DNA of 49,413 bases from Anaerolineae bacterium (GTDB taxonomy: Bacteria > Chloroflexota > Anaerolineae > JADYZS01), in NCBI GenBank assembly GCA_034434975.1, contig DAOTYP010000005.1, positions 1 through 49,413 on the forward strand, written 5' to 3'. A program made the position numbers and the translations under genes. Below, piece after piece: positions 2,052 through 49,413 of this stretch (positions within the stretch are counted from its first letter, which is position 1; every line of letters starts with the position of its first letter). The notes beneath the pieces are model-generated. The model saw only the letters and a program-made list of their open reading frames with translations. It searched no databases and was not told the DNA's origin.

Positions 2052-3467
2052 ATGCTTTCTATTCATGACCTCTGGAGAGCCCTAGGGGAGCAACCGCCCG
2101 AGGGCCTACCGGATCAACCGCTGTCCAACGTGGTGGTAGATTCACGCGAGGTGCAGCCCGGTGGCTGCTTCATCGCCCTGCCCGGCGAGCACCGCGACGG
2201 CCACGACTTTGTAGCCGACGCCTTCGGGCGAGGCGCGGTGGTGGCGGTGGTGCAACGAGACCCGGGGATAGGCTGTCCGGTCTTGAACCCGCGCAGCCCT
2301 ATTCCGGCAGGCCAGGTCGGGCTCCCGTTCTGCCTGCGGGTCGCGAACGGCATCGCTGCGCTGCAACAGATGGCCGCGTACTGGCGCTCTCGCTTCCGCC
2401 CGCGCGTGATCGGGATCACCGGCAGCGTCGGCAAGACCAGCACCAAGGAACTGGTTTACTCCGTCCTGCGCCAACGCTATCGCACGCTGCGCAGCGAGGG
2501 GAACCTGAACAACGAGATCGGCCTCCCGCTGACCTTGCTCCGCCTGAAGGCCGAGCACCAAGCGGTCGTGTTGGAGATGGGGATGTATGCCCTGGGCGAG
2601 ATCGCCACGCTCGCCGCCATCGCCAAGCCCCAGATCGGCATCATCACCAACGTCGGGCCCAGCCATCTGGAGCGCTTGGGGAGCCTGGAGAACATCGCCG
2701 CAGCCAAGGCTGAATTGGTAGAGGCGCTCCCTGCCGACGGCGTCGCCATCCTCAACGCAGACGATCCCTGGGTGCGTGCGATGGCCAAGAAAACCCAGGC
2801 GCAAGTGTTCACCTATGGCCTGGAGCCGGGCTGCGACCTGTGGGCCAGCGATATAGAGAGCCGCGGCTTGGAAGGAATTCGCTTCTACTTCCACCACGGC
2901 GACCAAGCCTTGCAGGTAAAGGTGCCCTTGTTGGGACGCCATAGCGTCCACACCGCGCTGCGGGCCGCGGCCGCAGGCCTGGTAACGGGGCTTTCATGGG
3001 AGGAGATCGTCGCGGGTCTGCAAAACGTAGGCGCACAACTGCGCCTCATCGCCGTCCCCGGCATCCATGGGACGACCCTGCTGGACGACACCTACAACGC
3101 CAGCCCCGCCTCCGGCATCGCCGCGCTCAACCTCCTGGCCGATTTGGAAGGGCGCCGCATCGCTGTCTTGGGCGACATGCTGGAACTGGGCGACTACGAG
3201 AAAGAGGGCCATCAGATGGTAGGCCTGCGCGCCGCGGATGTGGTGCAGAAGTTGGTGACCGTGGGCCCGCGCGCCCGTTGGATCGCCGAGGCCGCGCTGG
3301 CAGGCGGCATGAAGCGGGAAGACGTTTTCATCGCCGAAAACAACGACGCGGCCCTGATATACCTGAGCCAGATCGTGAGCCCAGGAGACATCATCCTGGT
3401 CAAAGGCTCGCGCGCGCTGGGCATGGAGTCCATCGTGGCCGCGTTCAGCCGCAGAACCGATGAATGA
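2052..3467 (+). CDS. murF: UDP-N-acetylmuramoyl-tripeptide--D-alanyl-D-alanine ligase
   Basis: 471-aa ORF with the Mur-ligase P-loop GITGSVGKTSTKE. MurF blocks are present: GNLNNEIGLPLTLL, EMGMYALGEI, NVGPSHLERLGS, DDTYNASP and LVKGSRALGME. Confidence 0.9.
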   Translation: MLSIHDLWRALGEQPPEGLPDQPLSNVVVDSREVQPGGCFIALPGEHRDGHDFVADAFGRGAVVAVVQRDPGIGCPVLNPRSPIPAGQVGLPFCLRVANGIAALQQMAAYWRSRFRPRVIGITGSVGKTSTKELVYSVLRQRYRTLRSEGNLNNEIGLPLTLLRLKAEHQAVVLEMGMYALGEIATLAAIAKPQIGIITNVGPSHLERLGSLENIAAAKAELVEALPADGVAILNADDPWVRAMAKKTQAQVFTYGLEPGCDLWASDIESRGLEGIRFYFHHGDQALQVKVPLLGRHSVHTALRAAAAGLVTGLSWEEIVAGLQNVGAQLRLIAVPGIHGTTLLDDTYNASPASGIAALNLLADLEGRRIAVLGDMLELGDYEKEGHQMVGLRAADVVQKLVTVGPRARWIAEAALAGGMKREDVFIAENNDAALIYLSQIVSPGDIILVKGSRALGMESIVAAFSRRTDE

Positions 3468-8810: not shown

Positions 8811-8812
8811 CC

Positions 8813-11410: not shown

Positions 11411-12336
11411 GCACGTCCACCGCGACCGCTACCTTCATCGGTGAGGCGCAGCGGCTTTTCGGCGACAGGTTGCTTGCCGGCGAGCCCCTGGCCAGGCACA
11501 CTACCTTCCGCATCGGCGGGCCGGCCGATTGGTTTCTCCCCGTTGCGACGACGGCGGAACTGGCCCAGGCGGTGGGATTGGCGAGGGCGCATCGGGTGCC
11601 GTTTTTCATCCTGGGCGGCGGCAGCAACATCCTCGTGGCCGACGCGGGCATAGAAGGGCTGGTGATCGCGGTCCGCTGCCGCAGGACGGAGATACGACCA
11701 GGTGGGCTCCTTTACGCCGAAGCGGGGGCAGCGCTGGCAGGGGTGGCCCGCACGGCGATGCGGGTTGGCCTGGGCGGCTTGGAATGGGCGGTGAGCGTTC
11801 CCGGCACGGTGGGCGGCGCGGTGGTCGGCAACGCCGGGGCTCACGGCAGTTGTGTGGCCGATAGCCTGGAGACGGCAACCCTCCTCTCTCCCGCTGGCGA
11901 GGTGCAACGCCATCCGGTCGGCTGGTTTCGCTACGGCTATCGCCAAAGCCGCCTGAAGAACCAGCCCACTGAGGAGGCTTACATCGTGTTGGCCGCCGAG
12001 TTCCGCCTGCAGCCGGCGCCGACGGCGGAGTTAGAGGCGAGGGCAGAGGAATTCCTGACGCGGCGGCGCGCCACGCAGCCTACGGAGGCGAGCGTCGGCT
12101 CCGTCTTCAAGAACCCGACGGGCGACTATGCCGGAAGGCTCATAGAGGCCGCGGGGCTCAAAGGCCATCGGCTCGGCCAGGCCCAAATCTCGCCCGTCCA
12201 TGCTAACTTTATTGTGAACCTGGGCGGAGCCTCGGCGACGGAGGTGTGGCGCCTCATCCAACTGGCCCGGGAGACGGTAGCCTCCCGCTTCGGCATCCGT
12301 TTGGAGTTGGAGATCTTGCGTGTTGGGCGCTGGTAG
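11407..12336 (+). CDS. murB: UDP-N-acetylenolpyruvoylglucosamine reductase
   Basis: GTG 11407 overlaps the murC stop (GTGA). FAD-binding blocks are present: [12 protein letters not shown] and [12 protein letters not shown]. The C-terminal block GSVFKNP...AGRLIE is also present. Confidence 0.9.
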
Positions 12337-12370
12337 CGCCTACACTGTAAACTGTCTTGAGGAAACGGCC

Positions 12371-13537
12371 ATGAGCAGACGCTTGCGGGTGGGGGTGATC
12401 TTCGGTGGACGTTCCGGCGAGCATGAGGTCTCGCTGGCCTCCGCGCGCTCCGTCATGGCCGCGATGGACAAGACGAAGTATGAACCGATCCCCATCGGCA
12501 TCACCAAGGAGGGACGCTGGCTCCTCGCCGGCGAGCCGCTGCGGGTGTTGGAAGAGGCGGTGAAGCACGGCCCACATGCCTTGGCGGCCGAGGCCCGGGC
12601 GCTGCCCTCCCGTGAACTCATCCCGATCAGCGACGACGGCTCATCGGGGGCTATATCTCGCCCTTCACCTCTGGCCTCGCTGGACGTCGTCTTCCCCGTG
12701 TTGCACGGCCCGTACGGCGAAGACGGCACGGTGCAGGGCCTGCTGGAACTGGCCGACATCCCTTACGTCGGCGCAGGTGTTCTCGCCTCCGCCGTTGGCA
12801 TGGACAAGGCCGTGATGAAGGACATCTTCAAGGCTCACGACCTACCGATCACGCGCCACCAAGTCATCCTCCGCAAGACCTGGGAGGCCGACCCCGCGCG
12901 CGTGGTGCGCGAGGCGGAGAGCGCCTTCGGCTATCCCTGTTTCATCAAGCCCGCCTGCCTTGGCTCCAGCGTGGGGGTCACCAAGGCCCATGACCGAGCC
13001 GAACTAGAAGCAGGGCTGGCCGAGGCCGCGCGCTACGACCGCAAGCTCATCGTTGAAGAGGCCGTGCCTCACGCGCGAGAGATAGAATGCAGCGTCTTGG
13101 GCAACGACGATCCCCTCGCGTCTGTGCCGGGAGAGGTCATCCCCAGCCGCGAATTCTACGACTACGCGGCGAAGTACCTGGATAACGCCTCGCAATTGTT
13201 GATCCCGGCTCCGCTGCCGTCGGCCCTGACCGCACGGATCCGCGCGCTGGCCATCGCCGCGTTCAAGGCCATAGACTGCGCCGGCATGGCGCGGGTGGAT
13301 TTCCTGTTGGATGGCCTCAACGGCGAACTCTACCTGAACGAGGTCAACACCATCCCGGGCTTCACCGCGATCTCCATGTACCCTAAGTTATGGGAGGCCA
13401 GTGGGATCTCATACCCTGAACTGATTGACCGCCTGATCGCGCTGGCGCTGGAGCGCCACGCCGACCGCGCCCGCTCGGCAACCACCTATCTAGGCCGTGC
13501 CCTCGGCGCACAGGAGCAAGGAGAAACTTCATGCTAA
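12371..13537 (+). CDS. ddl: D-alanine--D-alanine ligase
   Basis: ATG 12371 gives [20 protein letters not shown]. Further blocks are [17 protein letters not shown] and the ATP-grasp C-terminus ARVDFLLDG...[13 protein letters not shown]. Confidence 0.9.
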
Positions 13538-14850: not shown

Positions 14851-15675
14851 ATGCCGGCTTACCCTTCTACAATGACCCGCTATCGCGCGGCTTCTCGCCG
14901 ATCTTCCCGGCATGAGCCGGAGACGCGTCGCCAGCGACGCTATCGCGATGAGATACCTGTGCAACGTCCGTTGGCGCGACCACGGCCGGCTTTGCGCTTC
15001 TCCGCCAGCCGGGTCCTGGCCCTGATCCTGGCAGGGGTCATCGCCTTTGGCCTTGGCCAACTCCTGTCAAACGATCTTTTCTACGTCTATTCTGTCCAGG
15101 TTACAGGCAACCGCCTTCTGTCGGAAGGAGAAATCTTTGAGCAGAGCGGCATCGCAGGCCACAACATCTTTGGGGTGCGACCCCAACAGGTCAGCGCAGC
15201 CCTGATGGCCGATCCTTATGTCAAATCGGCGCGGGTGCAAGTAGGGCTGCCCAACCGCGTCCGCATTACCATCGTGGAGCGCGAGCCGCGCCTGGCCTGG
15301 GATGTCAACGGCACCGTCGTCTGGGCAGACGGCGAAGGGGTGATCCTGCCGCCTCGGGAAGGAAACGGCGAACTCGTGACCCTGGTGGACCCCGCCGGCG
15401 AAGCGGCGCTGGACGAAGGGCGCCTGCGCCCTGAGGTTGTCGCAAGTGCGTTGGAGATCCACCGGCTTCTGCCCGAACTCAAAACTTTCCGGTACGCCCG
15501 CAACCTAGGCTTACATTTTCAACTGCCTGGAGGCACGGTCTGCTACATGGGCGAAAAGGGCGACATGGCCACCAAAGTGGCCCTGCTGACCGCGCTGCGT
15601 CAGAACCTGGCCGCCCGACGAGTGCAGCCGCAGTTGATAGACCTACGATATGAAAGCAGCCCGTACTATCGGTGA
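14851..15675 (+). CDS. ftsQ: Cell division protein FtsQ/DivIB
   Basis: Basic cytoplasmic tail, a single TM (VLALILAGVIAFGLGQLL), then a POTRA-like block (VYSVQVTGNRLLSEGEIFEQSGI...NIF) and an FtsQ-type beta domain. It lies between ddl and ftsA. Confidence 0.8.
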   Translation: MPAYPSTMTRYRAASRRSSRHEPETRRQRRYRDEIPVQRPLARPRPALRFSASRVLALILAGVIAFGLGQLLSNDLFYVYSVQVTGNRLLSEGEIFEQSGIAGHNIFGVRPQQVSAALMADPYVKSARVQVGLPNRVRITIVEREPRLAWDVNGTVVWADGEGVILPPREGNGELVTLVDPAGEAALDEGRLRPEVVASALEIHRLLPELKTFRYARNLGLHFQLPGGTVCYMGEKGDMATKVALLTALRQNLAARRVQPQLIDLRYESSPYYR

Positions 15676-15732
15676 TCGGCGTGCCTTAGCGGCGCGCCCC
15701 GTGCGACGAAGGCGCAGGAGAGGTCGTCTCCG

Positions 15733-16992: not shown

Positions 16993-16998
16993 ACCGCC

Positions 16999-30699: not shown

Positions 30700-31749
30700 A
30701 TGGACGACCCTGGGCAATGGCCCCCCACAACCTTACGAATAGCGGTGCTGCACGGCGTCTTGGCCCCGGAACAGTGGGATGGCTCGGAAGCAGAGCGCAG
30801 AGAGATCAACAGGGGCGTATTCGAAGTAGCCGAGGCAATAGCCCACGCCTTGCGCAGCACCCCCAATGCCCAGGTCGTCGTGCATGGGATCAGCCGGTTG
30901 CGCGGCCTCTCCGCCTGGCTGCGCAGGGAGCAGATCAACGTCGTCTTCAACGTTTGCGAGTTCCTTGAGGGAAAGGGAAGCGAGGTTCACAAGATCCCCG
31001 CCCTCCTAGAACGGTTGGGGATTCCCTACACAGGCAACCGCGCCCCTGTCGTGCGCCTGAGCTTCAACCGCGTCGCCCTCAAGCGCAGACTTTTGCGCTA
31101 CGGCATTCCAACCCCCTCCTACGAGATCTTACAGGCCGGAGGCCCCCTTAACGGCCGCTTGTCGTTTCCCCTCATCGTGAAAGTAGCCAACGAGCACGCG
31201 TCCTTGGGCTTGGACGAACGCTCGGTCGTCTGGGATGAAGCCAGCCTGCAAGCACAGGCTCGGCGCGTGGCCCAGGAGCACGGCTGGCCGGTCTTGGTGG
31301 AGTCGTACATTGAAGGGATGGAGGTTACCGCCTCGCTGGTGGAAGACGACGACGGGCTCAAGATCCTCGGCCTACGCCAGTTTGACTTCTCGGAGGTTCC
31401 TCCTGGCCTTCCTCACATCATCACCTATCGCGCGAAATGGGAGACCGCCAGCGAGGACTACAAGCGCATCCGGCGCGGCAAGGCTCGCTTGTGCCCTGAG
31501 GTGGAGAGGGAGGTACGCCAATTGGCCCTCCGAACCTTTCAAGCGCTGGGCTGCCGAGATTACGGCCGTGTAGATGTGCGTGTAGATGCTGCGGGCCGCA
31601 TCTTCGTCATTGACGTAAACCCTGATTGCAGCCTGGAGATAGACTCCAACTGGGTGCTCACCGCTTTGGAGGAAGGCTACACCTACGAAACGGCCCTTCG
31701 CCATCTCCTCTTCCTGGCCGTCCGGCGCGGAGGGAAACCCTGCGGCTGA
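30700..31749 (+). CDS. ATP-grasp ligase, D-Ala-D-Ala-ligase-like family
   Basis: 349-aa ORF with SD GGAGG. The ATP-grasp layout is present: LGIPYTGN, FPLIVKVANEHASLGL, VLVESYIEGMEV and GRVDVRVDAAGRIFVIDVNPDCSL. It diverges from the dcw-encoded Ddl, with DVN where Ddl has E-x-N, so substrate is not assignable. Confidence 0.7.
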   Translation: MDDPGQWPPTTLRIAVLHGVLAPEQWDGSEAERREINRGVFEVAEAIAHALRSTPNAQVVVHGISRLRGLSAWLRREQINVVFNVCEFLEGKGSEVHKIPALLERLGIPYTGNRAPVVRLSFNRVALKRRLLRYGIPTPSYEILQAGGPLNGRLSFPLIVKVANEHASLGLDERSVVWDEASLQAQARRVAQEHGWPVLVESYIEGMEVTASLVEDDDGLKILGLRQFDFSEVPPGLPHIITYRAKWETASEDYKRIRRGKARLCPEVEREVRQLALRTFQALGCRDYGRVDVRVDAAGRIFVIDVNPDCSLEIDSNWVLTALEEGYTYETALRHLLFLAVRRGGKPCG

Positions 31750-31904
31750 AACCACACGAAGACCGTCGGAGGTAACGGAAAGCCAGGACGCGCGAAACCT
31801 TTTGCCGACCTCTGCGTCCCTAATATTGGGGAAGGCTACAGAGTCCTCCTACATAAAGTCGTATCGCTACAGGTCGGGGGTCAAAAGAAGGAGACCACAA
31901 CAAT

Positions 31905-31933
31905 TTGCCGATTGGGCGAAGATCGGCTATACT
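31905..31933 (+). promoter_or_regulatory. sigma70-type promoter of the LysM-YkuD gene
   Basis: -35 TTGCCG (31905-31910), 17-nt spacer, -10 TATACT (31928-31933). Confidence 0.55.
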
Positions 31934-31979
31934 TTTTAGGGTAAACGTCGCGTGCTGGCCGCGACAGGTTGGAGGAGAC

Positions 31980-32801
31980 ATGAAGCACAAGGCGCACGTG
32001 GCGTTTGTTTTGCTTTTGATGATCGGCCAGCTCCTGCTGACCGGCGTCGTTTCGGCCGATACCGAGGCCGCCCAGGTCGTGCATGTGGTGCGGCGTGGGG
32101 AAACGCTCGCCAGCATCGCGGCCCGCTACGGCGTCTCGGTGGCAAACGTTGTCCAGGCCAACTCGTTGCGCAACGCCAACTTCATCTGGGTTGGCCAAAG
32201 GCTCATCATCCCTACAAGCGCCGGCGCGCCAAGCCAGGGAAGCAGTGGGGTCTACTACGTGCGCTGGGGCGATACCCTTGCCAAGATCGCCGCTCGGTAC
32301 GGCATCTCCGTTCAGGCCATCATGGCGGCCAACGGGATCCGCAACCCCAACCTGATCTACGTAGGCCAGCGCCTGGCCATCCCAGGCGGCAACACACCTG
32401 CCCCTCAACCCACCCCCGTTCCCCAGCCTAATCCCAACCCTGACACAGGCGGCAAGTGGATAGATATAGACCTATCGGAGCAGCGGCTGCGGGCCTACGA
32501 GGGGAGCAAACTCGTGCTGAGCGTACTGGTCAGCACAGGGATCGCCCGCTACCCCACCCCGACGGGACGTTTTGCCATCCAGACGAAAGTCCGCTCGCAG
32601 ACGATGTCGGGCCCCGGCTACTACCTGCCGGGCGTGCAGTGGGTGATGTATTTCTACCGAGGTTACGCGATCCACGGCACGTATTGGCACAACAATTTCG
32701 GGCGGCCTATGAGCCATGGCTGCATCAACCTGACCAACGCTGACGCCCAGTTCATGTACAATTGGGCCCCCATCGGCACACCGGTCGTGATCCACCGGTG
32801 A
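31980..32801 (+). CDS. Secreted L,D-transpeptidase with two LysM domains (YkuD family)
   Basis: ATG 31980 follows GGAGGAG, and a signal peptide is present. There are two LysM repeats: [20 protein letters not shown]...VGQRLIIP and [20 protein letters not shown]...VGQRLAIP. The YkuD catalytic block YAIHGT...SHGCINL is present. Confidence 0.85.
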
Positions 32802-38452: not shown

Positions 38453-38527
38453 CAACCGCGACTTTCCACCCTAGAACGCGTGGCCGCGTCGCCTTGCGAT
38501 TTCTCGTAGCGTTGATAGAGGAAAGGT

Positions 38528-39748
38528 ATGCGCTACGCTCACATCATCGGCTGGGGCAAGTACGTGCCGGAACGGGTGCTGACCAACGCCGACTTGGAGA
38601 AGATGGTCAATACGTCGGACGAGTGGATCCGCACCCGCACCGGCATCCGTGAACGGCGCATCGCGGCGAACCCCGAGGATACGACCGCGACGATGGCCGT
38701 GCGCGCGGCGCGCAAGGCGCTGAACATGGCCGGCGTGCAGCCGGGCCAGTTGGACCTCATCATCGTCGCCACCTCGTCGCCCGAACACATCTTTCCGGCC
38801 ACCGCTTGCCTGGTGCAGAACGCGTTGGGCGCCAGCAAAGCCGGCGCCTTTGACCTGAGCGCGGCCTGTTCCGGCTTCGTCTACGCCTTGGCCATGGCCC
38901 ACGCCGTCATCGCCAGCGGCCAGGCGGAATACGTGTTGGTGATCGGCTCCGAAACCCTCTCCCGCATCACCGATTGGAAGGACCGCAACACTTGCGTCCT
39001 CTTCGGCGACGGCGCAGGGGCCCTCCTCCTGCGCGCATCCGACCAGCCGGGGGGCATCCTCTCCACCGTCCTCGGCTCCGACGGCTCCGGCGGCGACCTC
39101 CTGATCGTGCCTGCGGGTGGCAGCCGCCTCCCCACCAGCCCGGAGACGGTGGCCCAAGGGATGCACTACATCAAGATGGACGGCCGCGAGGTGTTTCGCT
39201 TCGCCACGCGCGTCATGGCCAAGGCCACGCAAGAGGTGGTCGCGAAGGCCGGCCTGAAACTGCAAGATGTAAACCTGGTCATCCCTCATCAGGCCAACGA
39301 GCGCATCATCCACTCTTCCATGAGCGCGCTGAAGATGACGCCGGAAAAGGTCTTCATCAACCTGGACCGTTACGGCAATACCTCCGCCGCATCCATCCCC
39401 ATCGCGCTCTGTGAGGCTATAGAGACCGGTCGGGTGAGGCCCAACGATAACCTGGTGTTCGTCGGCTTCGGCGCGGGGTTGACCTGGGCCGCGGCCGCGG
39501 TGAAGTGGGGCGTGCCGCCGCCCGCGAAGCCGCTTTCCTGGTGGCGTCGGCTCCAGATCGCCTTGCAAGGCCCTTGGGCCTCGTTGCGCTCGTGGATGCT
39601 GCGCCTGGGACGCCGCCTCTACGCGCTCATCCCCGGCTATGCCGGCGAAAGCCTCTATCTCCCTATCAGCCGGACGCGGGAATCGCCTCCCGCCGCCCCT
39701 GCGCGCTCTGCGCCGTCGGAGGAAACCCAGCCCGGTGGCGAAGGCTAG
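38528..39748 (+). CDS. fabH: 3-oxoacyl-ACP synthase III with about 80-aa C-terminal extension
   Basis: The blocks GKYVPERVLTNADLEKMVNTSDEWIRTRTGIRERR, active-site SAACSGF, IPHQAN and NTSAASIP are present. The family normally ends at GFGAGLTWAAAAVKWG (about 39510), but the frame continues to 39748. Confidence 0.88.
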   Translation: MRYAHIIGWGKYVPERVLTNADLEKMVNTSDEWIRTRTGIRERRIAANPEDTTATMAVRAARKALNMAGVQPGQLDLIIVATSSPEHIFPATACLVQNALGASKAGAFDLSAACSGFVYALAMAHAVIASGQAEYVLVIGSETLSRITDWKDRNTCVLFGDGAGALLLRASDQPGGILSTVLGSDGSGGDLLIVPAGGSRLPTSPETVAQGMHYIKMDGREVFRFATRVMAKATQEVVAKAGLKLQDVNLVIPHQANERIIHSSMSALKMTPEKVFINLDRYGNTSAASIPIALCEAIETGRVRPNDNLVFVGFGAGLTWAAAAVKWGVPPPAKPLSWWRRLQIALQGPWASLRSWMLRLGRRLYALIPGYAGESLYLPISRTRESPPAAPARSAPSEETQPGGEG

Positions 39749-39795
39749 GCGTAAAAGCCGTTCCCTCCTCGCAGGCATTGGTGGGCTGCCGGTGG

Positions 39796-40648: not shown

Positions 40649-43600
40649 TTGGCACACCGACGCAAGGCCGAACTGGCGGCTCTCCTCTTCCTGATCCTGT
40701 TGCCCCTCCTCTGGTTCGGGCCGGTCGTCGTGGGCGGGCGGACCCTCCTGCCTGCGGACAACCTGTACGCCTTTGAGCCGTGGCGCACCTACGCGCCCTC
40801 GCAGGGGATCACCATCCCCCACAACGAACTGGTGAGCGACCTCATCCTGGAGAACTACGCCTGGAAGATCCTCATCCTTCAGGCCCTTCGCGATAGACAA
40901 CTCCCCCTCTGGAATCCCTACCTGTTCGCAGGGGTTCCCTTCCTTGCCGCCGGCCAACATTCCGCGCTCTACCCCTTGAGCATCGTTTTTTACGTCCTGC
41001 CGTTATGGTTGGCCTACGGCGTCTTCACTTGGTTGCAATTGGCGCTGGCCTCGCTGGCGATGTACGCCTTCATGCGGACGCTGCGATTGGCCATCGGCCC
41101 CGCGCTCCTCGCGGCCATCGCTTACGCGTTCAGCCTCTTCTTCATCGTGAGCGTCACCTTCCCCATGATCATCGCCGCGGCGACGTGGCTGCCGCTCCTC
41201 CTGGCCGCGGTTGAGATCGTGGTGCGCAAGCAGGAAGAGAAGGGAAACGTCGCCTATTCGCCTGTGCCTTACGTCGCGCTGGGCAGCCTGGCCTTAGGGA
41301 TGGCGGCCCTCGCCGGACACGCCGAGATGCTCTACTACGTGCTCCTGACGGCGGCCTTCTACGCCCTCTGGCGTCTGGTAGCCTGCGCACGGCGCCTGCG
41401 CGCCTGGCAGCCTAGCCTGCGTCTGGTGGGGTGGCTTCTGGTCATGGTGGCTTTAGGACTGGGCCTGGGCGCGGCGCAGCTCCTGCCGCTCTACGAACTG
41501 GTGCAGGAGAACTTCCGCCAAGGCGCGGTAGGCTACAAGGAAGTGGTCGGCTGGGCTTACCCTGTGCGCCAGGTGATCACCTTCCTCATGCCCGACTTCT
41601 TCGGCAACCCCACCCACCACGCTTATTGGGATGTCCTTAGCCGCCGCAGCGTGACCCACCTTGTCAACGCAGCAGGCGAGCCGGTGCGCGCGATCTTCTG
41701 GGGCATCAAGAACTACGTAGAAGCGGGGAGCTATGTCGGGCTTCTGCCCCTTCTCTTGGCCGCGATCGCCGTCCTGGGCGCAAGCCACACGCCTTCCCGT
41801 CCGCATCTCTGGCTCTTCGTGACCCTTGCCATCCTCTCGCTCCTCTTCACCTTCGGCACGCCCCTCTACGCGCTCCTCTTCTACGGCCTGCCGGGCTACA
41901 ACCAACTCCACTCCCCCTTCCGTTGGGTCTTCCCCTATACCCTGGCCGTCGCGGCCCTCGCGGGCATGGGAGCGGAGAGGCTCTGCAGCCGATCTTCTTC
42001 TGATGATCCGCAGGCCGTGAGAGGCAAGGAGATCGCCACCTTACCGGCTTTCGCAGCCTTGGGTCTGGGCATCCTGACGCTCCTCGTCGTTGCCGTCAGC
42101 CTCGCCGTCCCTGGGCCCTTCATCCTACTGGGACAGCGCATCCTGGCCGCGGTGGACCTGGCGCGCGCGGCCTTCGCCGACGGGCGCGCCTTTTGGAGTT
42201 ACCAGGCCGTCAACCTGCTCAAGTTCGGCGGGCTGCTGAGCCTGTCGGGCGCCGCGCTGTTGTGGGCGCGGCGGCGAAGCCCCGGCACATCTCTCGGCCT
42301 GATCGCCGTCCTAGTCTTTGACCTCTGGCTCTACGGCCATGGCTTTCACGCGGCAGCCCAACCCGCCTGGCTCTCCTTCCGCCCACCTGTGGTAGATTTC
42401 TTGTTGGACGCCAGAGAGAAGGAAGGCCCTTGGCGATTCACCACCTTCATCCTCCCCGGCGAGAAGACCTTCAATGCCAACGTGGGAATGTTCTACGGCC
42501 TGGAGGACGTGCGCGGCTACGATTCCATCATCCCCCGGCCATATGTGGAGTTCATGGAACAGGTTGAGGAGCAGGACGAGCTCCTGTACAACCGCATCGC
42601 GCCCCTGTCCGACTACGCTTCGTTGGATTCGCCGCTCTTGCACCTGTTGGGTGTGCGGTACCTCTTGACCACGCAGCCCATCACCCACCCGGCCTGGACC
42701 CTCGTGTACGACCAAGAGGTGAAAGTTTACCGCAACGAGCGCGCCTTCCCGCGCGCCTTCGTCGTGCACAGCGCGCAAGTCGTGCCGACCGCCCAGATTC
42801 GCCCCAACCTGGCGGCCTTTGACCTGCAGCGAACCGTGCTCCTGGCCGACGAGAAGGCGTCCGCCCCTTACGCGCTCGGCTGCGCCGATTGTTCTCCCGC
42901 CTCGCAGCCGCTCATCCTCTCCTATCGCCCCAACGAGGTCGTCATCTCCGCCACCCTGGAGCTCCCTGGCTGGCTGGTGTTGACCGACAGCTTCTTCCCC
43001 GGCTGGCGCGCCTACGACAACGAGCGAGAAATCCCCATCCTGCGGGCCGACGGCCTCTTCCGCGCCGTGCGCCTGGAGGCAGGGCCGCACCGCATTCGCT
43101 TCCGCTACAGCCCTATGAGCGTGCGCCTCGGCTTCTACGGCAGCTTCCTGGCGGCCATGACGCTGGCGCTTTTGGCCGGCGCGTGGGCCTTGGGCAAGTT
43201 CTACCGAGAAGGCGGCGAAGAGGAGACCGTGCGCCGCGTGGCCAAGAATAGCCTAGTGCCGATGCTGGCGTCTCTGGTGAACAAAGGAATTGACTTCGCC
43301 TTTGCGCTTCTACGCCTGCGCATCCTCAACCCTGCAGGCGAAGGGAGTTACACCTTCGCCATCGTCTTCATCGGCTACTTTGAGATCCTGACGCGCTTCG
43401 GCTTGGGGACGCTCCTGACCCGCGAGGTGGCAAAGGATCGGGCCCAGGCGAACCGGTACTTCGCCAACACCGTCACCCTGCGCGCCCTCCTGTGGCTGGG
43501 CTCGCTCCCCCTCATGCTCCTGGTGGGGCTCCTGTATGCCCGCTTCGGCAGCCTGAGCCGCGACGAGGCATGGGCCATCGTTCTCTTCGCCGTCGCCCTC

Positions 43601-44713
43601 TTCTTCGCCAACGTGGCGGATGCCGTGAGCGCGGCCTTCAATGCCTACGAGAAGATGGAATATCCGGCGGGCCTTTCGGTAGGCGTGGCGCTGGGGAAAG
43701 TCGCCCTAGGCGCGCTGGTGCTCCTGTGGGGCTGGGGGTTCGTAGGGCTGGCAGGGGTGTCGGTGATCATGAACGTGGCGCAGGCGACGTGGCTTCTCCT
43801 CCTGATGCGGCGCCACCTCTTCACGCCGCGCCCGGAGAGGGATGCTGCCTTTCAGCGGGGGATGCTAGCCACGAGTTTCCCCTTGATGATCAACCATCTC
43901 CTGGCGACGGTCTTCTTCCGGGTAGATGTCCTCATCCTGAAGCCGTTAAAGGGCGAGGCGACCGTCGGGCTTTACGGCGCGGCCTACAAGTACATTGACG
44001 GGTTGAACGTCATCCCCGCCTACTTCACCCTGGCGATCTTTCCGCTCATGTCGCGCCTGGCGCAATCGGCGAGGGATTCCCTGGTGCGGGCTTACATCCT
44101 GTCGCTGCGGCTCCTCCTGATGATCAGCCTCCCCGTGGCCGTGGCGACAACCTTCCTGGCCGAGCCGCTGATCCTGATCCTGGGTGGCGCGCAGTATCTC
44201 CCGGCCAGCCGCATCGCCTTGCAAATCCTCATCTGGTCCATCCCCGTCGGCTTCATCAACAGCGTGACCCAATACGTCCTCATCGCCATTGACCAGCAGC
44301 GTTTCCTGACCCGTGCCTTCCTCATCGGCGTTACCTTCAACGTGGTGGCGAACCTCCTCCTCATCCCGCGCTACTCCTACCAGGCCGCGGCGGTGAACAC
44401 GATCCTCTCGGAGGTCGCGCTCCTCCTCCCCTTCTATTATTGCTTGCGGCGGAACCTGGGGCCCATCCCTTGGGCACACCTGGCCTGGCGGCCTGCGGCG
44501 GCGGCGAGCGCGATGGCGCTGACGATGGCCGCGTTGCGGCCGTTCTCCTCGCTCGTGGCGTTCATGGCGGGGATGATCGTTTATCCGGTGGGGTTGGTGG
44601 CCGTAGGCGCTTTTCGCGACGCCGATGTGGCGGCCATCGTGACCAAACTGATGCCCGTCGCCAGGCTCCGCGCGCTGTTGGCTACGGTCCGCGCCGCGCT
44701 AAGGCAAGCGTGA
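40649..44713 (+). CDS. Fusion membrane protein: N-terminal YfhO-type GT-C glycosyltransferase + C-terminal MOP-superfamily (Wzx-like) polysaccharide flippase
   Basis: 1354-aa uninterrupted ORF with a TTG start 12 nt after the GT2 stop. YfhO blocks are present: GRTLLPADNLYAFEPW, LPLWNPYLFAGVPFLA and the C-terminal FFPGWRAYDNEREIPILRADGLFRAVRLEAGPHRIRFRYSP. From about 43230 it is a 12-14-TM flippase (RRVAKNSLVPMLASLVNKGIDFAF...LLTREVAKD...). No stop or frame change occurs at the junction (about 43200). Confidence 0.8.
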   Translation: MAHRRKAELAALLFLILLPLLWFGPVVVGGRTLLPADNLYAFEPWRTYAPSQGITIPHNELVSDLILENYAWKILILQALRDRQLPLWNPYLFAGVPFLAAGQHSALYPLSIVFYVLPLWLAYGVFTWLQLALASLAMYAFMRTLRLAIGPALLAAIAYAFSLFFIVSVTFPMIIAAATWLPLLLAAVEIVVRKQEEKGNVAYSPVPYVALGSLALGMAALAGHAEMLYYVLLTAAFYALWRLVACARRLRAWQPSLRLVGWLLVMVALGLGLGAAQLLPLYELVQENFRQGAVGYKEVVGWAYPVRQVITFLMPDFFGNPTHHAYWDVLSRRSVTHLVNAAGEPVRAIFWGIKNYVEAGSYVGLLPLLLAAIAVLGASHTPSRPHLWLFVTLAILSLLFTFGTPLYALLFYGLPGYNQLHSPFRWVFPYTLAVAALAGMGAERLCSRSSSDDPQAVRGKEIATLPAFAALGLGILTLLVVAVSLAVPGPFILLGQRILAAVDLARAAFADGRAFWSYQAVNLLKFGGLLSLSGAALLWARRRSPGTSLGLIAVLVFDLWLYGHGFHAAAQPAWLSFRPPVVDFLLDAREKEGPWRFTTFILPGEKTFNANVGMFYGLEDVRGYDSIIPRPYVEFMEQVEEQDELLYNRIAPLSDYASLDSPLLHLLGVRYLLTTQPITHPAWTLVYDQEVKVYRNERAFPRAFVVHSAQVVPTAQIRPNLAAFDLQRTVLLADEKASAPYALGCADCSPASQPLILSYRPNEVVISATLELPGWLVLTDSFFPGWRAYDNEREIPILRADGLFRAVRLEAGPHRIRFRYSPMSVRLGFYGSFLAAMTLALLAGAWALGKFYREGGEEETVRRVAKNSLVPMLASLVNKGIDFAFALLRLRILNPAGEGSYTFAIVFIGYFEILTRFGLGTLLTREVAKDRAQANRYFANTVTLRALLWLGSLPLMLLVGLLYARFGSLSRDEAWAIVLFAVALFFANVADAVSAAFNAYEKMEYPAGLSVGVALGKVALGALVLLWGWGFVGLAGVSVIMNVAQATWLLLLMRRHLFTPRPERDAAFQRGMLATSFPLMINHLLATVFFRVDVLILKPLKGEATVGLYGAAYKYIDGLNVIPAYFTLAIFPLMSRLAQSARDSLVRAYILSLRLLLMISLPVAVATTFLAEPLILILGGAQYLPASRIALQILIWSIPVGFINSVTQYVLIAIDQQRFLTRAFLIGVTFNVVANLLLIPRYSYQAAAVNTILSEVALLLPFYYCLRRNLGPIPWAHLAWRPAAAASAMALTMAALRPFSSLVAFMAGMIVYPVGLVAVGAFRDADVAAIVTKLMPVARLRALLATVRAALRQA

Positions 44714-44748: not shown

Positions 44749-47310
44749 TCACACCACCCTGGGCACGCGCGCCAATATCTCCGACACCACCTCGTAGTTG
44801 ATCGTCCCCAGCCGCTCGGCGACCTCTTCCACCGTGATGCGATCGTCGCCCTGCGCGCCGATGAGCACCACCTCATCCCCTTGGCGCACGCCGGGGATGT
44901 GGGTCACGTTGATCATCGTTTGATCCATGCAGACCCGGCCCACGATCTTTGCCCGTCGTCCGCGCACGAGCACCTCGCCCCAGTGCGCGGGCGCGCGGCG
45001 GAAGCCGTCGGCGTACCCTACGGGGATCACCGCGATCCGTTCCTCGCCCTGGGTGCGGTAGGTGTTACCGTAACTGACGTAACTGCCGGGCGGAAGCGTC
45101 TTCACCTGGGCGATCTGCGTTTTCCAACTCAGCGCGGGGCGAAAGCCCGGCGGCAATGGCGTCTCCGCGGAGGGCGCGAGGCCGTAGAGGGCGATCCCCA
45201 GACGCACCAGGTTGAAGCGGCTCTCCGGCACGGTGAGGAGCGCAGCCGAGTTGGCTGCGTGCACCAGCGGCGGGCGCAAACCTTCCGCCTCCAGCGCATC
45301 CAACACGGCGCGAAAGACGGCCAGTTGCCGGTAGGTGTAGCCTTTGTCGGCGGCATCGGCCACGGAAAAGTGAGTGAAGATGCCCTCCACCTCCACGCCC
45401 GGCAGGTCGCGCAGCGCACGCATGAAGGGCAACACTTCATCCGGCAACAGGCCAAGCCGCCCCATGCCGGTATCCACCTTCACGTGGAGTCGCGCGGTCT
45501 GATGAAGTTCCACCGCGGCGCGGCTGAAGGCGCGGGCGCTATCCAGGTCAAAAACGGTCGCGGTCACGCGGTGAAGGAGCGCCTCGCGCGCGTGCCAAGC
45601 CGGGGTATAGCCCAAGATGAGGATCGGCGCGTCCAGGCCGGCGCGCCGCAGGGCGACCGCCTCGGCCAGACACGCCACGCCCAGTATCCGCGCGCCGTTG
45701 TTCAGGGCCGTGCGGCCCACGATGACCGCGCCGTGGCCGTAACCGTCGGCCTTCAGCACCGCCAGGATGCCCACCCCCGGCCCCACGATCTCTTGGGCCC
45801 GCCGGATGTTGTGCGCAATGGCGTTCAGGTCAATCTCCAACCAGGTAGGGCGGTCGGGGCGCGCCGCGCTCAAGCGGGCAAGGACGGTGCTCCCCCCCTG
45901 GCGCACCAGCAGATCGGACGCGCGGGCCGCCGCCTCCGGCGCGAGGAGACGGCTGACCAGACGCTCCAGCCGCGCCTCCCTTCCGCCTTTGACCAAAAGG
46001 ACGGCATCTGGGCCGAGCCGCTCCGAGAGGTAACGCGCCGCCTCCTCTATGCTATAGGTCTCAAAGACGGCCGACGGTGGCAGGCCTGCGGCCCGCGCCG
46101 CCTGCGCGCTCCCCCTGGCCCGTTCGCCTACCGTAACCAACGTCTCTACCACACCGACCGCCGCCTCTCCTACCTTGCGGTGGCCTTCGGCCTCGTAGTG
46201 GCCCAAATCCTCCATGTCGCCTAGCACGGCCAGGCGCCGATGCCCTTTAAAACAAGCCAACGCCGACAACGCGGCCAGGGCGGTCGCGGGCGTGGCGCTC
46301 ACGGTGTCATCCAGGATGAGGCTCCCTTGCAAGCCAGGCAGCGGGTTCAGGCGACCGGGCAAGGGAGGCAAACCGGACAACGCCGCGCTCGCCTCGGCCG
46401 GCGATACGCCGCTGATGAGCCCGACGCCCAACGCGGCCAGCGCGGGATAGACCGCATGGGGGCCGAGAAAACGCAGACAGATATCCGCCTTCGCCTGGTC
46501 GTCGCCGCGATGCACGAAGGTGAACGAGGTGCCGGCAGGGGTACAACGAACATCCACCGCGCGCAGGTCAGCCTGAGGCGAGCAGCCAAAGGTCAGGACG
46601 CGCGCACGGGTGTGTGCGCGCAAGGCTAGAACGCGCGGGTCATCGGCGTTCAGCAAGGCGAAACCGTCGGGCGGCAAGGCCTCTACCAGGCGCCCCTTCT
46701 CGCGCGCGACGGTAGCCAAGTCGCCAAAGAAGGCCAGGTGCGCCTCATGAACGGAAGTTACAACGCCGACGACGGGCCGGGTGAGCGCGGCCAGGTCGCG
46801 TATCTCATCCAGGCTGGTGGCCGCCAGTTCCAGGACGGCGATCTCATGTTCAGGCCCTAACCCGCCCAGCGCGATGGGAAGGCCATAGCGACCGCTGTAA
46901 CTGGCTGGGCTCTTGAAGACGCGAAAGCGAGAGGCGAGGACTGCCGCGATCGCCTCCTTCGTCACCGTCTTGCCGCTGGAGCCGGTGACGGCGACCACGC
47001 GCGGGCTATAACGCCTCAGGATGTGCGCGGCCCAATCTAGAAGCGCGCGGCGCACGTCATCCACGACGACGCACGTGACGCCGAACGGGCTCAGATCAAG
47101 GGGATGTTGGCAAAGGACGCCCGCCGCGCCGCCCCGCGCCACATCCAAGATGTAATCGTGGCCATCGCCCGTCTCCGTCTTGACCGCCAGGAACAACTGG
47201 CCTTGGCGCAGAAGGCGCGAGTCAAAGCAGAAATCGGTGAAACGATCGGCGAAGGCAGGGCCGTGCAGTCGCCCGCCCGTCGCCACAAGAAGGTCAGACA
47301 AGAGGATCAT
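44749..47310 (-). CDS. Bifunctional MurF-like Mur ligase / alanine racemase fusion
   Basis: 853-aa ORF. The N-terminal Mur-ligase domain (about 45930-47310) carries the P-loop VAVTGSSGKTVTKE. The C-terminal alanine racemase domain (44749 to about 45855) carries the PLP-lysine motif AVLKADGYGHG and the VSYGNTY block. The start overlaps the upstream stop (4-nt overlap). Confidence 0.85.
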   Translation of the reverse strand: MILLSDLLVATGGRLHGPAFADRFTDFCFDSRLLRQGQLFLAVKTETGDGHDYILDVARGGAAGVLCQHPLDLSPFGVTCVVVDDVRRALLDWAAHILRRYSPRVVAVTGSSGKTVTKEAIAAVLASRFRVFKSPASYSGRYGLPIALGGLGPEHEIAVLELAATSLDEIRDLAALTRPVVGVVTSVHEAHLAFFGDLATVAREKGRLVEALPPDGFALLNADDPRVLALRAHTRARVLTFGCSPQADLRAVDVRCTPAGTSFTFVHRGDDQAKADICLRFLGPHAVYPALAALGVGLISGVSPAEASAALSGLPPLPGRLNPLPGLQGSLILDDTVSATPATALAALSALACFKGHRRLAVLGDMEDLGHYEAEGHRKVGEAAVGVVETLVTVGERARGSAQAARAAGLPPSAVFETYSIEEAARYLSERLGPDAVLLVKGGREARLERLVSRLLAPEAAARASDLLVRQGGSTVLARLSAARPDRPTWLEIDLNAIAHNIRRAQEIVGPGVGILAVLKADGYGHGAVIVGRTALNNGARILGVACLAEAVALRRAGLDAPILILGYTPAWHAREALLHRVTATVFDLDSARAFSRAAVELHQTARLHVKVDTGMGRLGLLPDEVLPFMRALRDLPGVEVEGIFTHFSVADAADKGYTYRQLAVFRAVLDALEAEGLRPPLVHAANSAALLTVPESRFNLVRLGIALYGLAPSAETPLPPGFRPALSWKTQIAQVKTLPPGSYVSYGNTYRTQGEERIAVIPVGYADGFRRAPAHWGEVLVRGRRAKIVGRVCMDQTMINVTHIPGVRQGDEVVLIGAQGDDRITVEEVAERLGTINYEVVSEILARVPRVV

Positions 47311-48566
47311 AGAGAGGGCCGAGACTCAACAGGATGGGGCGCCAGCAAGGCCTCCCAATCCACCTCGGGGATGGGGGGCGGCTGCGGCATCTCCGGCTTA
47401 GGGATCATCAGGGTCTCAAAGGTCTGAGCAGTGGCTTCCAGGGGGCTGATGTCCACCTCCGGCATGGGCAAAGGCTCTGGAAAGAGGCCTTCCCCGACGA
47501 TAGCCGCCGTGACGGGCATCTTCTCTATCTCCGGCATCTCGGCTCGCGCAGGCATGGTCGCATGAGACGGCATCGCCCCTCGGGCCGGAGAGGCGGCTTC
47601 TCGTCGGGCCTTGCGCGCCACCTCACGCGGCTCACGGCTGGCCACGCGCAGCGCCCAGGCGAAATCTTTGGCGGTAGCGAAGCGCTGCCCGGGTTGCAAC
47701 GCGAGGGCGACCTCCAGCACCTGGTCCAACTCAGGCCAGACATCGGGGTTAAAGCGGCTCGCGGGGATGAGCCGGCCCGCGTCGCGGGCGGGGCCACGCT
47801 GGGTCAATAGAAGGTACAGGAGCGCGCCCAAGGCGTAAACATCACTTCGCGCGTCGGCCTCCGCGCCGGCTACGACTTCCGGCGGCGTGAAGAAGGTGCG
47901 CACCTTGGGCACTGCCAACCCTACCGCCCGCATGATCTGGCTCAGACCGACGCCGCGCACCATGACCTGGCCCCCTTGGCTGACGAAGATTTGGTCGCTG
48001 CCGAGGAAGCCGTGGATCAACCCTTGCTCATGGGCGTAGGCCAACGCATCCGCCGCTTTCAACGCGACCTGAAGCGCATCCCGCAGTTTCCAAGGCCGCC
48101 CCTCGCGCAGCCGCTCCGTCAGCGGGGTCAACCCCTCCGCCAGACGCACCATCAGGTAGGAGAGGCCCCCTTCCTCGCCGGCTTCCACCAGAGAGGCTAA
48201 GTTGGGGTGGTTCAAGCGGCGTATCAACCCCAACAGTTGGCGATAGGTCGCGCCAGCCTCTTTCTGACCCTGCCTTGGCAAGACGCGCGCTGCGATCGGC
48301 GCTCCCTTCGGCCCCGGCTCGCGAGCCTCTATCCAGCCGCCCGGCCCGGTGCGGGCGCGCTCGCCCAGGGCCCGATACAGCGCAAGGGCCTCCCGCACGA
48401 GGGCGCGCCGCACCTCACGCGGCGTGCGGCCCGCCTGCGCGCCAGAGGCAACCCGCGCCAACCAGCGCGCCACCTCGGGCGGCAAGAGCGAGCCCTCCGC
48501 CGTCGCGGTCATTGCCAAGACGGCGCGCGCCAGGCGCGCCTGAAGGGACGATCTTTCCTCGCTCAT
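47307..48566 (-). CDS. Hanks-type Ser/Thr kinase homologue lacking catalytic residues (pseudokinase) with Pro/Glu-rich C-terminal tail
   Basis: The kinase C-lobe is recognisable (ALAYAHEQGLIH..., TPPEVVAGAEADARSDVYALGALLYLLLT). Catalytic motifs are replaced. HRDxKxxN becomes HGFLGSDQ (47991-48014). DFG becomes GVG (47946-47954). The VAIK Lys becomes Arg (IAARVL). There is no GxGxxG loop. Confidence 0.7.
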   Translation of the reverse strand: MSEERSSLQARLARAVLAMTATAEGSLLPPEVARWLARVASGAQAGRTPREVRRALVREALALYRALGERARTGPGGWIEAREPGPKGAPIAARVLPRQGQKEAGATYRQLLGLIRRLNHPNLASLVEAGEEGGLSYLMVRLAEGLTPLTERLREGRPWKLRDALQVALKAADALAYAHEQGLIHGFLGSDQIFVSQGGQVMVRGVGLSQIMRAVGLAVPKVRTFFTPPEVVAGAEADARSDVYALGALLYLLLTQRGPARDAGRLIPASRFNPDVWPELDQVLEVALALQPGQRFATAKDFAWALRVASREPREVARKARREAASPARGAMPSHATMPARAEMPEIEKMPVTAAIVGEGLFPEPLPMPEVDISPLEATAQTFETLMIPKPEMPQPPPIPEVDWEALLAPHPVESRPSL

Positions 48567-48573
48567 GACAGGC

Positions 48574-49413
48574 TCATAGGCTGAGACCGATGATCTCTTC
48601 CGCCTGGGCCACAGCCCCTTGCATATCGGCGATGAGGCCCTTCATGTCGCTCTCGGTCCAATCCAACTGTTGGATGGCGACCTCGTCCAGGGTATAGCGC
48701 AGCCCGTCCACGCCGATGCCGATGCCCGCCATCAGGGCGGCGGCGTTGGCGATGTGAACAGCCGAGGCAAAGCGCGGATCAATCTGCGCCTTCGCCGGCA
48801 AATGGTGGCAAGCGACGGCCTCTATCACCCGATCGGGCAGGTTCCAAGACCTCACGATCACCGCGCCTACCTCGGCGTGATCGTAGCCGGTGATCTGGCG
48901 CTCTACCTCCGTCCAGGCGCGTTTGTCTGGGTCTTCATAGGCTTTCTCTCCCCACTCCGCCTGTTGCTGCAGAATCAAATCCAGGGCCAGTTTCCCTACA
49001 TCGTGGAGCAAGCCTGCCACGTAGACCTCCGAGCGAGGAGTGATGAGGCGACGCTGCGCGATCCTTTCGCTCCCTACCGCCACGGCCACGGAATGTCGCC
49101 ATAGCATCGCCCGCTCCAACCTGTAGGCAGGAACGGGCCGGGAGAGGATCTTGCTGGCGGAGGCAGCGAAAATGACCTCCTGCACGGTCTCATAGCCCAG
49201 GTAGCCGATGGCCTCATCCAAAGAGGCGATGCGGCGGGGAAGGCCATAGTAGGCGGAGTTCACCATCTTGAGAAACAGGCCCGTCAGGCTCTGATCCAGC
49301 GCCAGGACGCTCGTGAGGTCGGACCGCCGCGAGCGCGGGTCCTGGATGATGGCCAAGGCGCGGACCAACACCTGGGGCATCGGCGGAAGTTGGCGCAAGA
49401 CGGTCGGGAGTAG
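48574..49413 (-). CDS. HDOD-domain protein (5' end may lie beyond the window)
   Basis: LPPMPQVLVRALAIIQDP...LTSVLALDQSLTGLFLKMVNSAYYGL...IASLDEAIGYLG and AGLLHDVGKLAL are typical HDOD blocks. The frame stays open to the window edge upstream of the TTG at 49398. The stop lies 7 nt before the pseudokinase ATG. Confidence 0.8.
   Translation of the reverse strand, partial: LLPTVLRQLPPMPQVLVRALAIIQDPRSRRSDLTSVLALDQSLTGLFLKMVNSAYYGLPRRIASLDEAIGYLGYETVQEVIFAASASKILSRPVPAYRLERAMLWRHSVAVAVGSERIAQRRLITPRSEVYVAGLLHDVGKLALDLILQQQAEWGEKAYEDPDKRAWTEVERQITGYDHAEVGAVIVRSWNLPDRVIEAVACHHLPAKAQIDPRFASAVHIANAAALMAGIGIGVDGLRYTLDEVAIQQLDWTESDMKGLIADMQGAVAQAEEIIGLSL

Follow-up and report, generated by a model that had tools for sequence, protein, structure and literature searches.

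Bacterial pseudokinases are experimentally almost unexplored, with the pseudokinase domain of mycobacterial MviN the sole wall-related case that is well understood. That domain, of MviN/MurJ and known also as ActPs3, is a non-catalytic regulatory platform, phosphorylated by PknB and acting with FhaA (PMC12599244). It belongs to one of seven described bacterial pseudokinase families, i.e., ActPs1, ActPs2, ActPs3, GLW, CP1, DYD, and DLHK, with the three catalytic motifs all degraded in five of those seven and scaffold roles proposed (2025 review PMC12599244; bSTK atlas preprint); the review mentions SelO and SidJ as well. Hanks-type kinases in addition are described as governing cytoplasmic steps of peptidoglycan synthesis, i.e., as PknB-CwlM-MurA and as PrkA-ReoM-MurA. 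Already known, that is, are pseudokinases tied to wall synthesis (MviN), and known too is a fusion of MurF with alanine racemase (Alr), here MurF::Alr, which is both named and widespread. Considered here is a locus at which a stand-alone pseudokinase gene directly precedes a gene for such a fusion. It is found within 49,413 nucleotides of DNA from an Anaerolineae bacterium (Chloroflexota; assembly GCA_034434975.1, contig DAOTYP010000005.1), the whole of which stretch I refer to as the window. The reading that I favor, at somewhat short of an even chance, is that these two genes form a functional unit, a two-gene module within which the pseudokinase would be a non-catalytic regulatory or scaffold subunit.

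The pair is the downstream portion of three consecutive minus-strand open reading frames (ORFs), encoding in turn an HDOD protein, a kinase-like protein, and MurF::Alr. An earlier note on this DNA, made from its letters alone, had described these genes as separated by a 7-nt gap and then a 4-nt overlap, and had assigned them as HDOD, Hanks-kinase homologue, and MurF::Alr. The junction sequences agree (TGA-GCCTGTC-ATG between HDOD and kinase-like genes; CTATGATCC, i.e., an ATGA overlap, between kinase-like and MurF::Alr genes), as do Pfam and NCBIfam scans with all three domain assignments. The genes and the parts of the fusion are located as follows.

48574..49413, minus strand: HDOD/HD-domain gene (Pfam HDOD 5e-51, HD 1.4e-10, HDIG 42.8 bits), its 5' end lying beyond the window
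47307..48566, minus strand: pseudokinase gene, 419 aa (Pkinase 57 bits), of subfamily A as defined below
47307..47310, minus strand: ATGA stop/start overlap of pseudokinase and MurF::Alr genes, from the junction sequence; a translational coupling signature
44749..47310, minus strand: MurF::Alr gene, 853 aa (Mur_ligase_M/C plus Ala_racemase_N/C)
45940..47310, minus strand: MurF-like half, aa 1-457 (TIGR01143), with P-loop TGSSGKT at 46966-46986
44749..45852, minus strand: alanine racemase half, aa 487-853 plus stop codon (TIGR00492, Ala_racemase_N/_C)
45730-45759, minus strand: PLP-Lys motif VLKADGYGHG of the Alr half
45058-45078, minus strand: catalytic Tyr region VSYGNTY of the Alr half

Tight gene packing by itself is ordinary in bacteria. 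It is comparative evidence, not packing, which places the pairing of pseudokinase with downstream MurF::Alr above chance. A scan for terminators and promoters was uninformative as operon evidence, with five terminator-like matches, located inside coding sequence, being no clear excess over the shuffled expectation of 2.7 +/- 1.6.

Relatives of the pseudokinase were sought by word-indexed search, which returned eight clusters of clear relatives only, and by a full profile search over 1.84 billion representatives, which returned about 11 family representatives at 50% clustering, a new subgroup included. The relatives are annotated as Anaerolineae. A genome scan employing the pseudokinase alignment was set aside, its patterns being generic kinase motifs; 3 of 80 loci (L008-L010) belonged to the family, and the others, true kinases, were ignored. 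Three subfamilies can be distinguished, with A and C pseudokinases 29-37% identical.

Subfamily A (window type): N-terminal extension, β3 Arg, GVG; rpiB-HDOD upstream; context known for the window, the P0002 contig, L001, L002, and the P0006 contig
Subfamily B: N-terminal extension, β3 Gln, HGA, GVG, longer C-terminus; DUF2231 or LiaI/LiaF-like gene upstream; context known for P0306, P0329, and P0346
Subfamily C: no extension, a zinc ribbon after the kinase domain, β3 Lys and DFG mostly kept; RadC-CutA1 upstream; context known for P0007, P0008, P0220, L005, L008, L009, and L010

Across these three subfamilies MurF::Alr is the next gene downstream of the pseudokinase at 11 of 13 distinct family loci, with the adjacency seen in the window, on the P0002 contig, at L001, L002, P0006/P0101 (one contig), L003, and L005, and also at L009, L010, L168-170, L171, and L172/173. 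The partner fusions of the window's subfamily are 57-63% identical to those of the other two. Flanking genes differ by subfamily, as listed above, leaving pseudokinase-MurF::Alr as the sole adjacency common to all. The window has ATGA as the overlap between the two genes; L003, L009, and L010 have TTGA, L168, L171, and L172 have GTGA, and the junction in L001 and L002 is an 8-nt spacer. Comparison of these junctions suggests that the signature of translational coupling has formed anew, each time around another of three start codons. Because the pairing is the lone adjacency to have survived in three diverged subfamilies with differing neighbors, its persistence across deep divergence suggests as well a functional link between pseudokinase and fusion. 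What the earlier note had proposed from one locus, i.e., a pseudokinase coupled to a MurF-racemase, in this sense has held up, the pair being conserved over that divergence.

Two further arrangements may be recorded. RadC and CutA1 genes are found upstream of the subfamily-C pseudokinase at L003, L005, L008, and L010, with CutA1 only at L009 and an extra GTPase gene at L008; the functional logic of this RadC-CutA1-pseudokinase string is not obvious. One metagenome contig (L117, 2424-3227) carries a kinase-like gene, 31% identical to P0007, downstream of a partial MurF::Alr.

The window's kinase-like protein matches Pkinase (PF00069) at 57.1 bits, against a cutoff of 31.7 and with only profile positions 28-198 aligned, and matches NF033483 (PknB_PASTA_kin) at 93.6 bits. 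Upon alignment with active bacterial kinases, the VAIK Lys is seen to be Arg (AARV), the αC Glu to be Leu, and HRD to be HGF, with the HRDxKxxN catalytic loop as a whole reading HGFLGSDQ (Lys to Gly, Asn to Gln); DFG is GVG, the Gly-rich loop is degenerate, and APE is retained as PPE. The residue set of an active Ser/Thr kinase, i.e., β3 Lys, αC Glu, HRD Asp, loop Lys and Asn, and DFG Asp, is absent, just as the earlier note had it in calling this kinase homologue catalytically degraded. An AlphaFold2 model, with a 50-sequence alignment as input, has a mean pLDDT of 81.4 and a pTM of 0.71; its C-lobe is confident, its N-terminal extension forms three helices, and a proline-rich linker (residues ~330-365) is of low confidence. 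The top Foldseek matches of this model against the PDB are the kinase domains of M. tuberculosis PknB and PknA (E ~3e-14; target TM-score 0.67-0.71). Judged from alignment and model together, the protein is a predicted pseudokinase, for which a bilobal, PknB-like kinase fold is modelled with good confidence. It has no transmembrane-like segment, the maximum 19-residue hydropathy (KD19) being 1.37. Its parts are these.

48342..48566, minus strand: N-terminal helical extension, aa 1-75 (model helices 8-20, 30-41, 49-67)
47592..48341, minus strand: degenerate kinase domain, aa 76-325 (from alignment and motif table)
48282-48296, minus strand: AARV, at the VAIK site of the kinase domain
47991-48014, minus strand: HGFLGSDQ, at the HRDxKxxN site of the kinase domain
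47943-47957, minus strand: GVG, at the DFG site of the kinase domain
47874-47888, minus strand: PPE, at the APE site of the kinase domain
47451..47483, minus strand: tail motif 1, FPEPLPMPEVD, aa 362-372, of the proline-rich low-confidence linker; conserved in subfamilies A, B, and C
47331..47390, minus strand: tail motif 2, MPQPPPIPEVDWEALLAPHP, aa 393-412; conserved in subfamilies A, B, and C

Degradation extends to the family. The HRD Arg and αC Glu are missing in 18 of 18 members, the β3 Lys and DFG Asp are lost in subfamilies A and B, and the HRD Asp is lost in 17 of 18, with the residue there being F, S, A, G, N, or D (Asp only in L009); being so variable, that position is unconstrained. 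The N-terminal extension is common to subfamilies A and B (P0306, P0329, and P0346 match the profile from position 10) and is missing in C. Purifying selection nonetheless is clear, both on the kinase core residues RxLNHP, DVYxLG, and SRFNP and on the tail motif. The tail is bipartite, with a consensus across all intact members of FP(E/A)PLPMPx(V/I)D ... (M/I)PxPPx(I/M)Px(V/I)(D/N)W within a linker which itself is variable; invariant in one alignment (A2) are F362, P363, M368, and P369 of the first part and P394, P400, D403, W404, and P412 of the second. A conserved tail within a variable linker is typical of short linear interaction motifs, and the alignment suggests that this tail may be one.

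The tail is missing from the P0225, P0227, and L008 proteins. At L005 (4483-6004) the subfamily-C pseudokinase seemingly is frameshifted after ~250 aa, with the tail intact in the next, 86-aa ORF; this frameshift is probably an assembly error, a real pseudogene being the alternative. Public annotations of the proteins considered here are ‘serine/threonine protein kinase’, ‘alanine racemase’, and ‘putative nucleotidyltransferase with HDIG domain’.

The fusion scores above cutoff with models for both of its halves, i.e., 309.1 bits with TIGR01143 for murF (cutoff 288.6) and 367.5 bits with TIGR00492 for alr (cutoff 168), and its MurF half matches E. coli MurF (1GG4) at 6e-58. Retained by that half are the Mur-ligase motifs TGSSGKT, VLELA, AHL, EKG, NADD, and LDD, with substrate specificity thereby a prediction. 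An inactive MurF half, as might be read from ‘DDTVSATP’ replacing ‘DDxYNANP’, was considered and rejected: other fusions have YS, FN, FS, or YN at this site and the remaining motifs are intact. The window possesses as well a complete dcw block (346-18303, or 346-13537 if taken only as far as ddl: PBP, murF, mraY, murD, ftsW, murG, murC, murB, ddl, ftsQ, ftsA, and ftsZ), with a murF and ddl of its own.

2052..3467, plus strand: canonical murF (TIGR01143 420 bits)
12320..13537, plus strand: canonical ddl, at the end of the mur block (NF002528 467 bits)

At 41% identity to the dcw MurF and located ~41 kb from that cluster, the fusion's MurF half is, as previously claimed, a second, diverged MurF standing apart from the canonical murF and ddl. 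That claim had been taken further, to a parallel, separately wired route to, or sink for, D-Ala-containing precursors, which overstates matters given a fusion that is widespread and usually without a pseudokinase. Relatives number 1710 at E<=1e-50, in Anaerolineae and beyond, and the best 120 of those 1710 all reach 60% identity or more where they align, which for most is the full length; source names include ‘alanine racemase’ and ‘Alr-MurF fusion protein’ (JGI). MurF::Alr carries the sole alanine racemase seen in the window and, judged by this distribution, is a conserved Anaerolineae gene which may well supply the housekeeping racemase. A link to van-type resistance, i.e., a second MurF for D-Ala-D-Lac, was dropped, the fusion being a widespread core gene, found off mobile elements and with no vanHAX nearby.

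If pseudokinase and MurF::Alr indeed form a two-gene module, then the pseudokinase would be translationally coupled to MurF::Alr, the two being produced at a constant ratio. The pseudokinase would then either bind MurF::Alr or tether the fusion to another cell-wall or division partner, in each case via the kinase-like domain along with the bipartite proline-rich C-terminal motif, with the outcome that D-alanine production and/or D-Ala-D-Ala addition to UDP-MurNAc-tripeptide would be tuned. The pseudokinase might in addition be a phospho-acceptor platform for genuine Hanks kinases, as is the MviN pseudokinase domain of mycobacteria, and in the window's lineage the HDOD/HD-domain gene 7 nt upstream, probably co-transcribed, could possibly provide an extra input. 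Binding, regulation, and direction of effect are what I infer here, and a regulatory or scaffold role is suggested because of the analogy with the MviN pseudokinase and FhaA together with kinase control of cytoplasmic peptidoglycan steps. A narrower version, in which MurF::Alr has in this family of free, soluble pseudokinases an allosteric or scaffold subunit dedicated to it and acting via the bipartite proline-rich tail, is rather doubtful.

Several findings weigh against any such module. From the side of the pseudokinase, the family is small, its contexts all come from metagenome contigs, and at two loci a gene other than MurF::Alr is found downstream, i.e., a Lactamase_B gene on the P0008 contig and opposite-strand genes at L008. 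In subfamily C, moreover, synteny extends to the block RadC-CutA1-pseudokinase, and inertia may thus account for some of the conservation seen there. From the side of the fusion, most MurF::Alr lack an upstream pseudokinase and MurF::Alr therefore can do without one. Among three random fusions of 61-67% identity, a subfamily-C pseudokinase is upstream in L005 and none is in L004 or L006/7. A metagenome scan with the MurF::Alr alignment yielded ~22 fusion loci, none above 59% identity, along with numerous stand-alone Alr genes; among the 17 of these fusion loci with at least 1.3 kb upstream, neither a pseudokinase (0/17) nor HDOD or CutA1 (0/17) precedes the fusion, this being a negative sample, with the pseudokinase-bearing clade outside of its coverage. 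The fusion residues specific to pseudokinase-associated MurF::Alr, lastly, come to just four weak positions, and an interface drawn from these (R87, L249, F354, L467) was abandoned as based on too few. Counting for the module is a rough neighbor-joining tree of MurF::Alr, in which all fusions with a pseudokinase fall into a single subclade. Fusions without one are scattered among them there, and more distant fusions are never pseudokinase-associated, a pattern that fits a single acquisition of the pseudokinase followed by losses or relocations.

It may be, then, that the two genes are neighbors by descent only, with the pseudokinase acting elsewhere or decaying and the overlap a matter of compact genome organisation. 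The two family members without adjacency, the pseudokinase-less majority of fusions, and the unrelated RadC and CutA1, likewise syntenic with subfamily-C pseudokinases, are all as such neutral synteny would have it, and so too are the predicted pseudokinases truncated or frameshifted in L005, P0225, P0227, and L008. Those truncations, however, are from metagenome assemblies and may be assembly errors, with the L005 tail, as noted, intact. Neutrality sits poorly as well with an adjacency which alone is common to three subfamilies at ~30% pseudokinase identity, with flanks otherwise different, with a 4-nt overlap retained despite three different start codons, and with the purifying selection on core and tail. 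I consider neutral synteny to be unlikely, though no alternative considered here is stronger.

Unlikely to a slightly greater degree is that MurF::Alr is merely co-expressed for wall growth, with the true partner of the pseudokinase being a division, elongation, or envelope-stress protein that is bound by the C-terminal motif, i.e., the pseudokinase as localisation or stress adaptor. Conservation of the tail at the end of a disordered linker does resemble hub-binding peptides, P0008 retains this tail though away from MurF::Alr, and the neighbors of subfamily B are envelope-related (LiaI/LiaF-like; DUF2231 membrane protein). No third partner gene is conserved across the subfamilies, however, and translational coupling is a sign of stoichiometric synthesis together with MurF::Alr in particular.

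The earlier note had gone beyond the pair, presenting HDOD, pseudokinase, and MurF::Alr as a single module, and it is in this regard that the synteny search went against it, HDOD being limited to subfamily A. The HDOD protein matches PF08668 at 173.4 bits (cutoff 22.9), over profile positions 1-195 of 196. Its ORF as listed spans 48574-49398 (274 aa), but the TTG ‘start’ at 49398 is an artefact, as the frame is open to base 49413, i.e., the end of window and contig, and orthologues with which it aligns begin 6 codons further upstream, with P0369 (99% identical) being 285 aa; this puts the true start about 6 codons past the contig end. A joint regulation of the D-Ala branch by all three proteins would have in its favor that HDOD and pseudokinase genes share a strand and a 7-nt gap in both the window and L002; that the triad recurs in each close relative looked at, namely L001, L002, and a number of contigs from the same 90% clusters; and that rpiB-HDOD-pseudokinase-MurF::Alr was kept in the window's clade while outer flanks changed. 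Yet those are close relatives only (HDOD 85% and MurF::Alr 87% identical to the window's), and even among them HDOD-pseudokinase spacing is 150 nt in L001. In subfamilies B and C the pseudokinase is preceded not by HDOD but by a CutA1, DUF2231, or LiaI/LiaF-like gene.

HDOD orthologues otherwise are common in Anaerolineae at 55-69% identity. Two such loci (58-62% identity) were examined and neither has a pseudokinase or MurF::Alr within 6 kb, the neighbors instead being a gene for a RecQ helicase or a pair made up of a hybrid histidine kinase and a response regulator. The orthologues of 58-62% identity at L174 (1080-6858) and L175 (6001-10406) have that pair in common at a distance of a few kb, the histidine kinase being of 749 aa and the response regulator of ~400-420 aa, and these neighborhoods hint that this two-component system may be the HDOD protein's usual partner. 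With HDOD confined beside the pair to close relatives and its orthologues found elsewhere, the triad therefore is a recent juxtaposition. The HDOD gene is a lineage-specific neighbor, plausibly co-transcribed in the window's lineage, rather than a conserved component of the module, and a three-component module accordingly is quite unlikely.

Least probable is that the kinase homologue is an atypical active enzyme, binding nucleotide and performing non-canonical catalysis (phosphorylation, AMPylation, or similar) on MurF::Alr or a precursor, for while subfamily C, mostly with β3 Lys and DFG, may bind nucleotide, and while some pseudokinases elsewhere are generally known to be active by alternative mechanisms, subfamilies A and B have lost the whole set of Lys, Glu, HRD Asp, loop Lys/Asn, and DFG Asp, the residue at the HRD-Asp position is free to vary, and the Gly-rich loop is degenerate.

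The remainder of the window offers a number of observations in its own right. A 1354-aa ORF (40649-44713, plus strand), having a YfhO-like N-terminal region and a Wzx/Polysacc_synt/MATE-type flippase C-terminal region, is convergent with MurF::Alr, with 35 bp between stop codons. In the dcw block murF (2052-3467) comes immediately after a PBP/FtsI gene (346-2037), murE not being in its usual place between them nor seen anywhere in the window; the genome nonetheless has two MurF-type ligases. Between ddl and ftsQ is a 424-aa ORF (13531-14805) with weak similarity (1e-9, far below cutoffs) to MtaA/CmuA, i.e., a uroporphyrinogen-decarboxylase-like methyltransferase. Encoded at 30700-32801 is a second, diverged Ddl-like ATP-grasp protein of 349 aa (105-108 bits with D-Ala-D-Ala ligase models, cutoffs ~245), after which comes a LysM-repeat protein with an L,D-transpeptidase-like C-terminus; by its gene content this is possibly another D-amino-acid or wall-remodelling locus. 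Two ORFs, 23758-26112 (plus strand, 784 aa) and 38471-39778 (minus strand, 435 aa), are large but match no Pfam or NCBIfam model, and the latter is overlapped by an equally long plus-strand ORF, leaving its coding strand ambiguous.

Were the narrower version, with its dedicated subunit, to hold, it would be the first instance of a stand-alone pseudokinase in direct control of the supply of D-alanine and of the completion of the pentapeptide, and would imply an independent origin, outside of the Actinobacteria, for the control of wall synthesis by pseudokinases. A pseudokinase tied to soluble, assayable enzymes, i.e., alanine racemase and MurF, would be tractable also for study of the regulation of metabolism by dead kinases. 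Raised in addition would be the questions of why Anaerolineae and other groups retain a second MurF that is fused to Alr, and of how the D-Ala branch, at which such antibiotics as D-cycloserine and the glycopeptides are classically aimed, is controlled within a little-studied phylum. Should the adjacency instead be neutral, then what is gained is a refinement of annotation only, from kinase to pseudokinase and from ‘alanine racemase’ to MurF::Alr fusion.

How the locus compares with known systems can be taken from its periphery inward. SadB of Pseudomonas possesses an HDOD domain along with an extra N-terminal domain and acts in biofilm control. It is described as an adaptor in the post-translational control of a regulator (PMC12075610). 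The window's HDOD protein has that domain in common with SadB, but is a stand-alone HDOD/HDIG protein with orthologues found beside two-component genes.

MurF::Alr for its part has the same order as the bifunctional MurF/Alr of PRK11930, Mur ligase then alanine racemase, with P-loop, PLP-Lys, and catalytic Tyr region intact, and as with PRK11930-type fusions it coexists with a separate dcw murF. Because its score with that model is 453.4 bits, below the cutoff of 804, it is to be placed in a different, Chloroflexota branch. The pseudokinase partner is specific to one subclade of the fusions. In the literature searched, no description of an Alr-MurF fusion by that name was found, nor in what was searchable was there a description of a free pseudokinase coupled to a MurF-racemase, the latter as the earlier note had expected.

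Closest to the pseudokinase in sequence and fold are the PknB/PASTA kinases, which share with it the theme of a Hanks-type protein associated with a Mur enzyme. Those kinases, however, are active, membrane-anchored, and equipped with PASTA sensors, whereas the window's protein is without catalytic residues, transmembrane segment, or PASTA domains. The seven described families, as well as YukC/EssB, are likewise bacterial Hanks-type pseudokinases, five of the seven being degraded in the manner of subfamilies A and B. None of these is reported from Chloroflexota or beside Mur/Alr genes, and their defining features (GLW motif, COG3899 fusion, transmembrane regions, actinobacterial indels) are absent here, while the present family has features of its own, i.e., HG[x] for HRD, the SRFNP motif, and the bipartite proline-rich tail. 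In its features it matches none of the seven.

The nearest likeness is to the MviN domain, as both have a Hanks-type fold, the degradation of all catalytic motifs, and a genetic tie to a peptidoglycan-precursor protein. The MviN domain, though, is actinobacterial, fused to a membrane flippase, and marked by a transmembrane region and a ~40-residue activation-loop deletion. In the window's protein the activation segment, GVG...PPE, is by direct count 26 residues, i.e., near normal length and without that ~40-residue deletion; there is no transmembrane segment; and the 419 aa stand alone. The MviN domain, that is, is built into the flippase with which it is associated, whereas the window's pseudokinase is a free and, by its hydropathy, soluble protein of Anaerolineae, encoded just upstream of the gene for a cytoplasmic enzyme.

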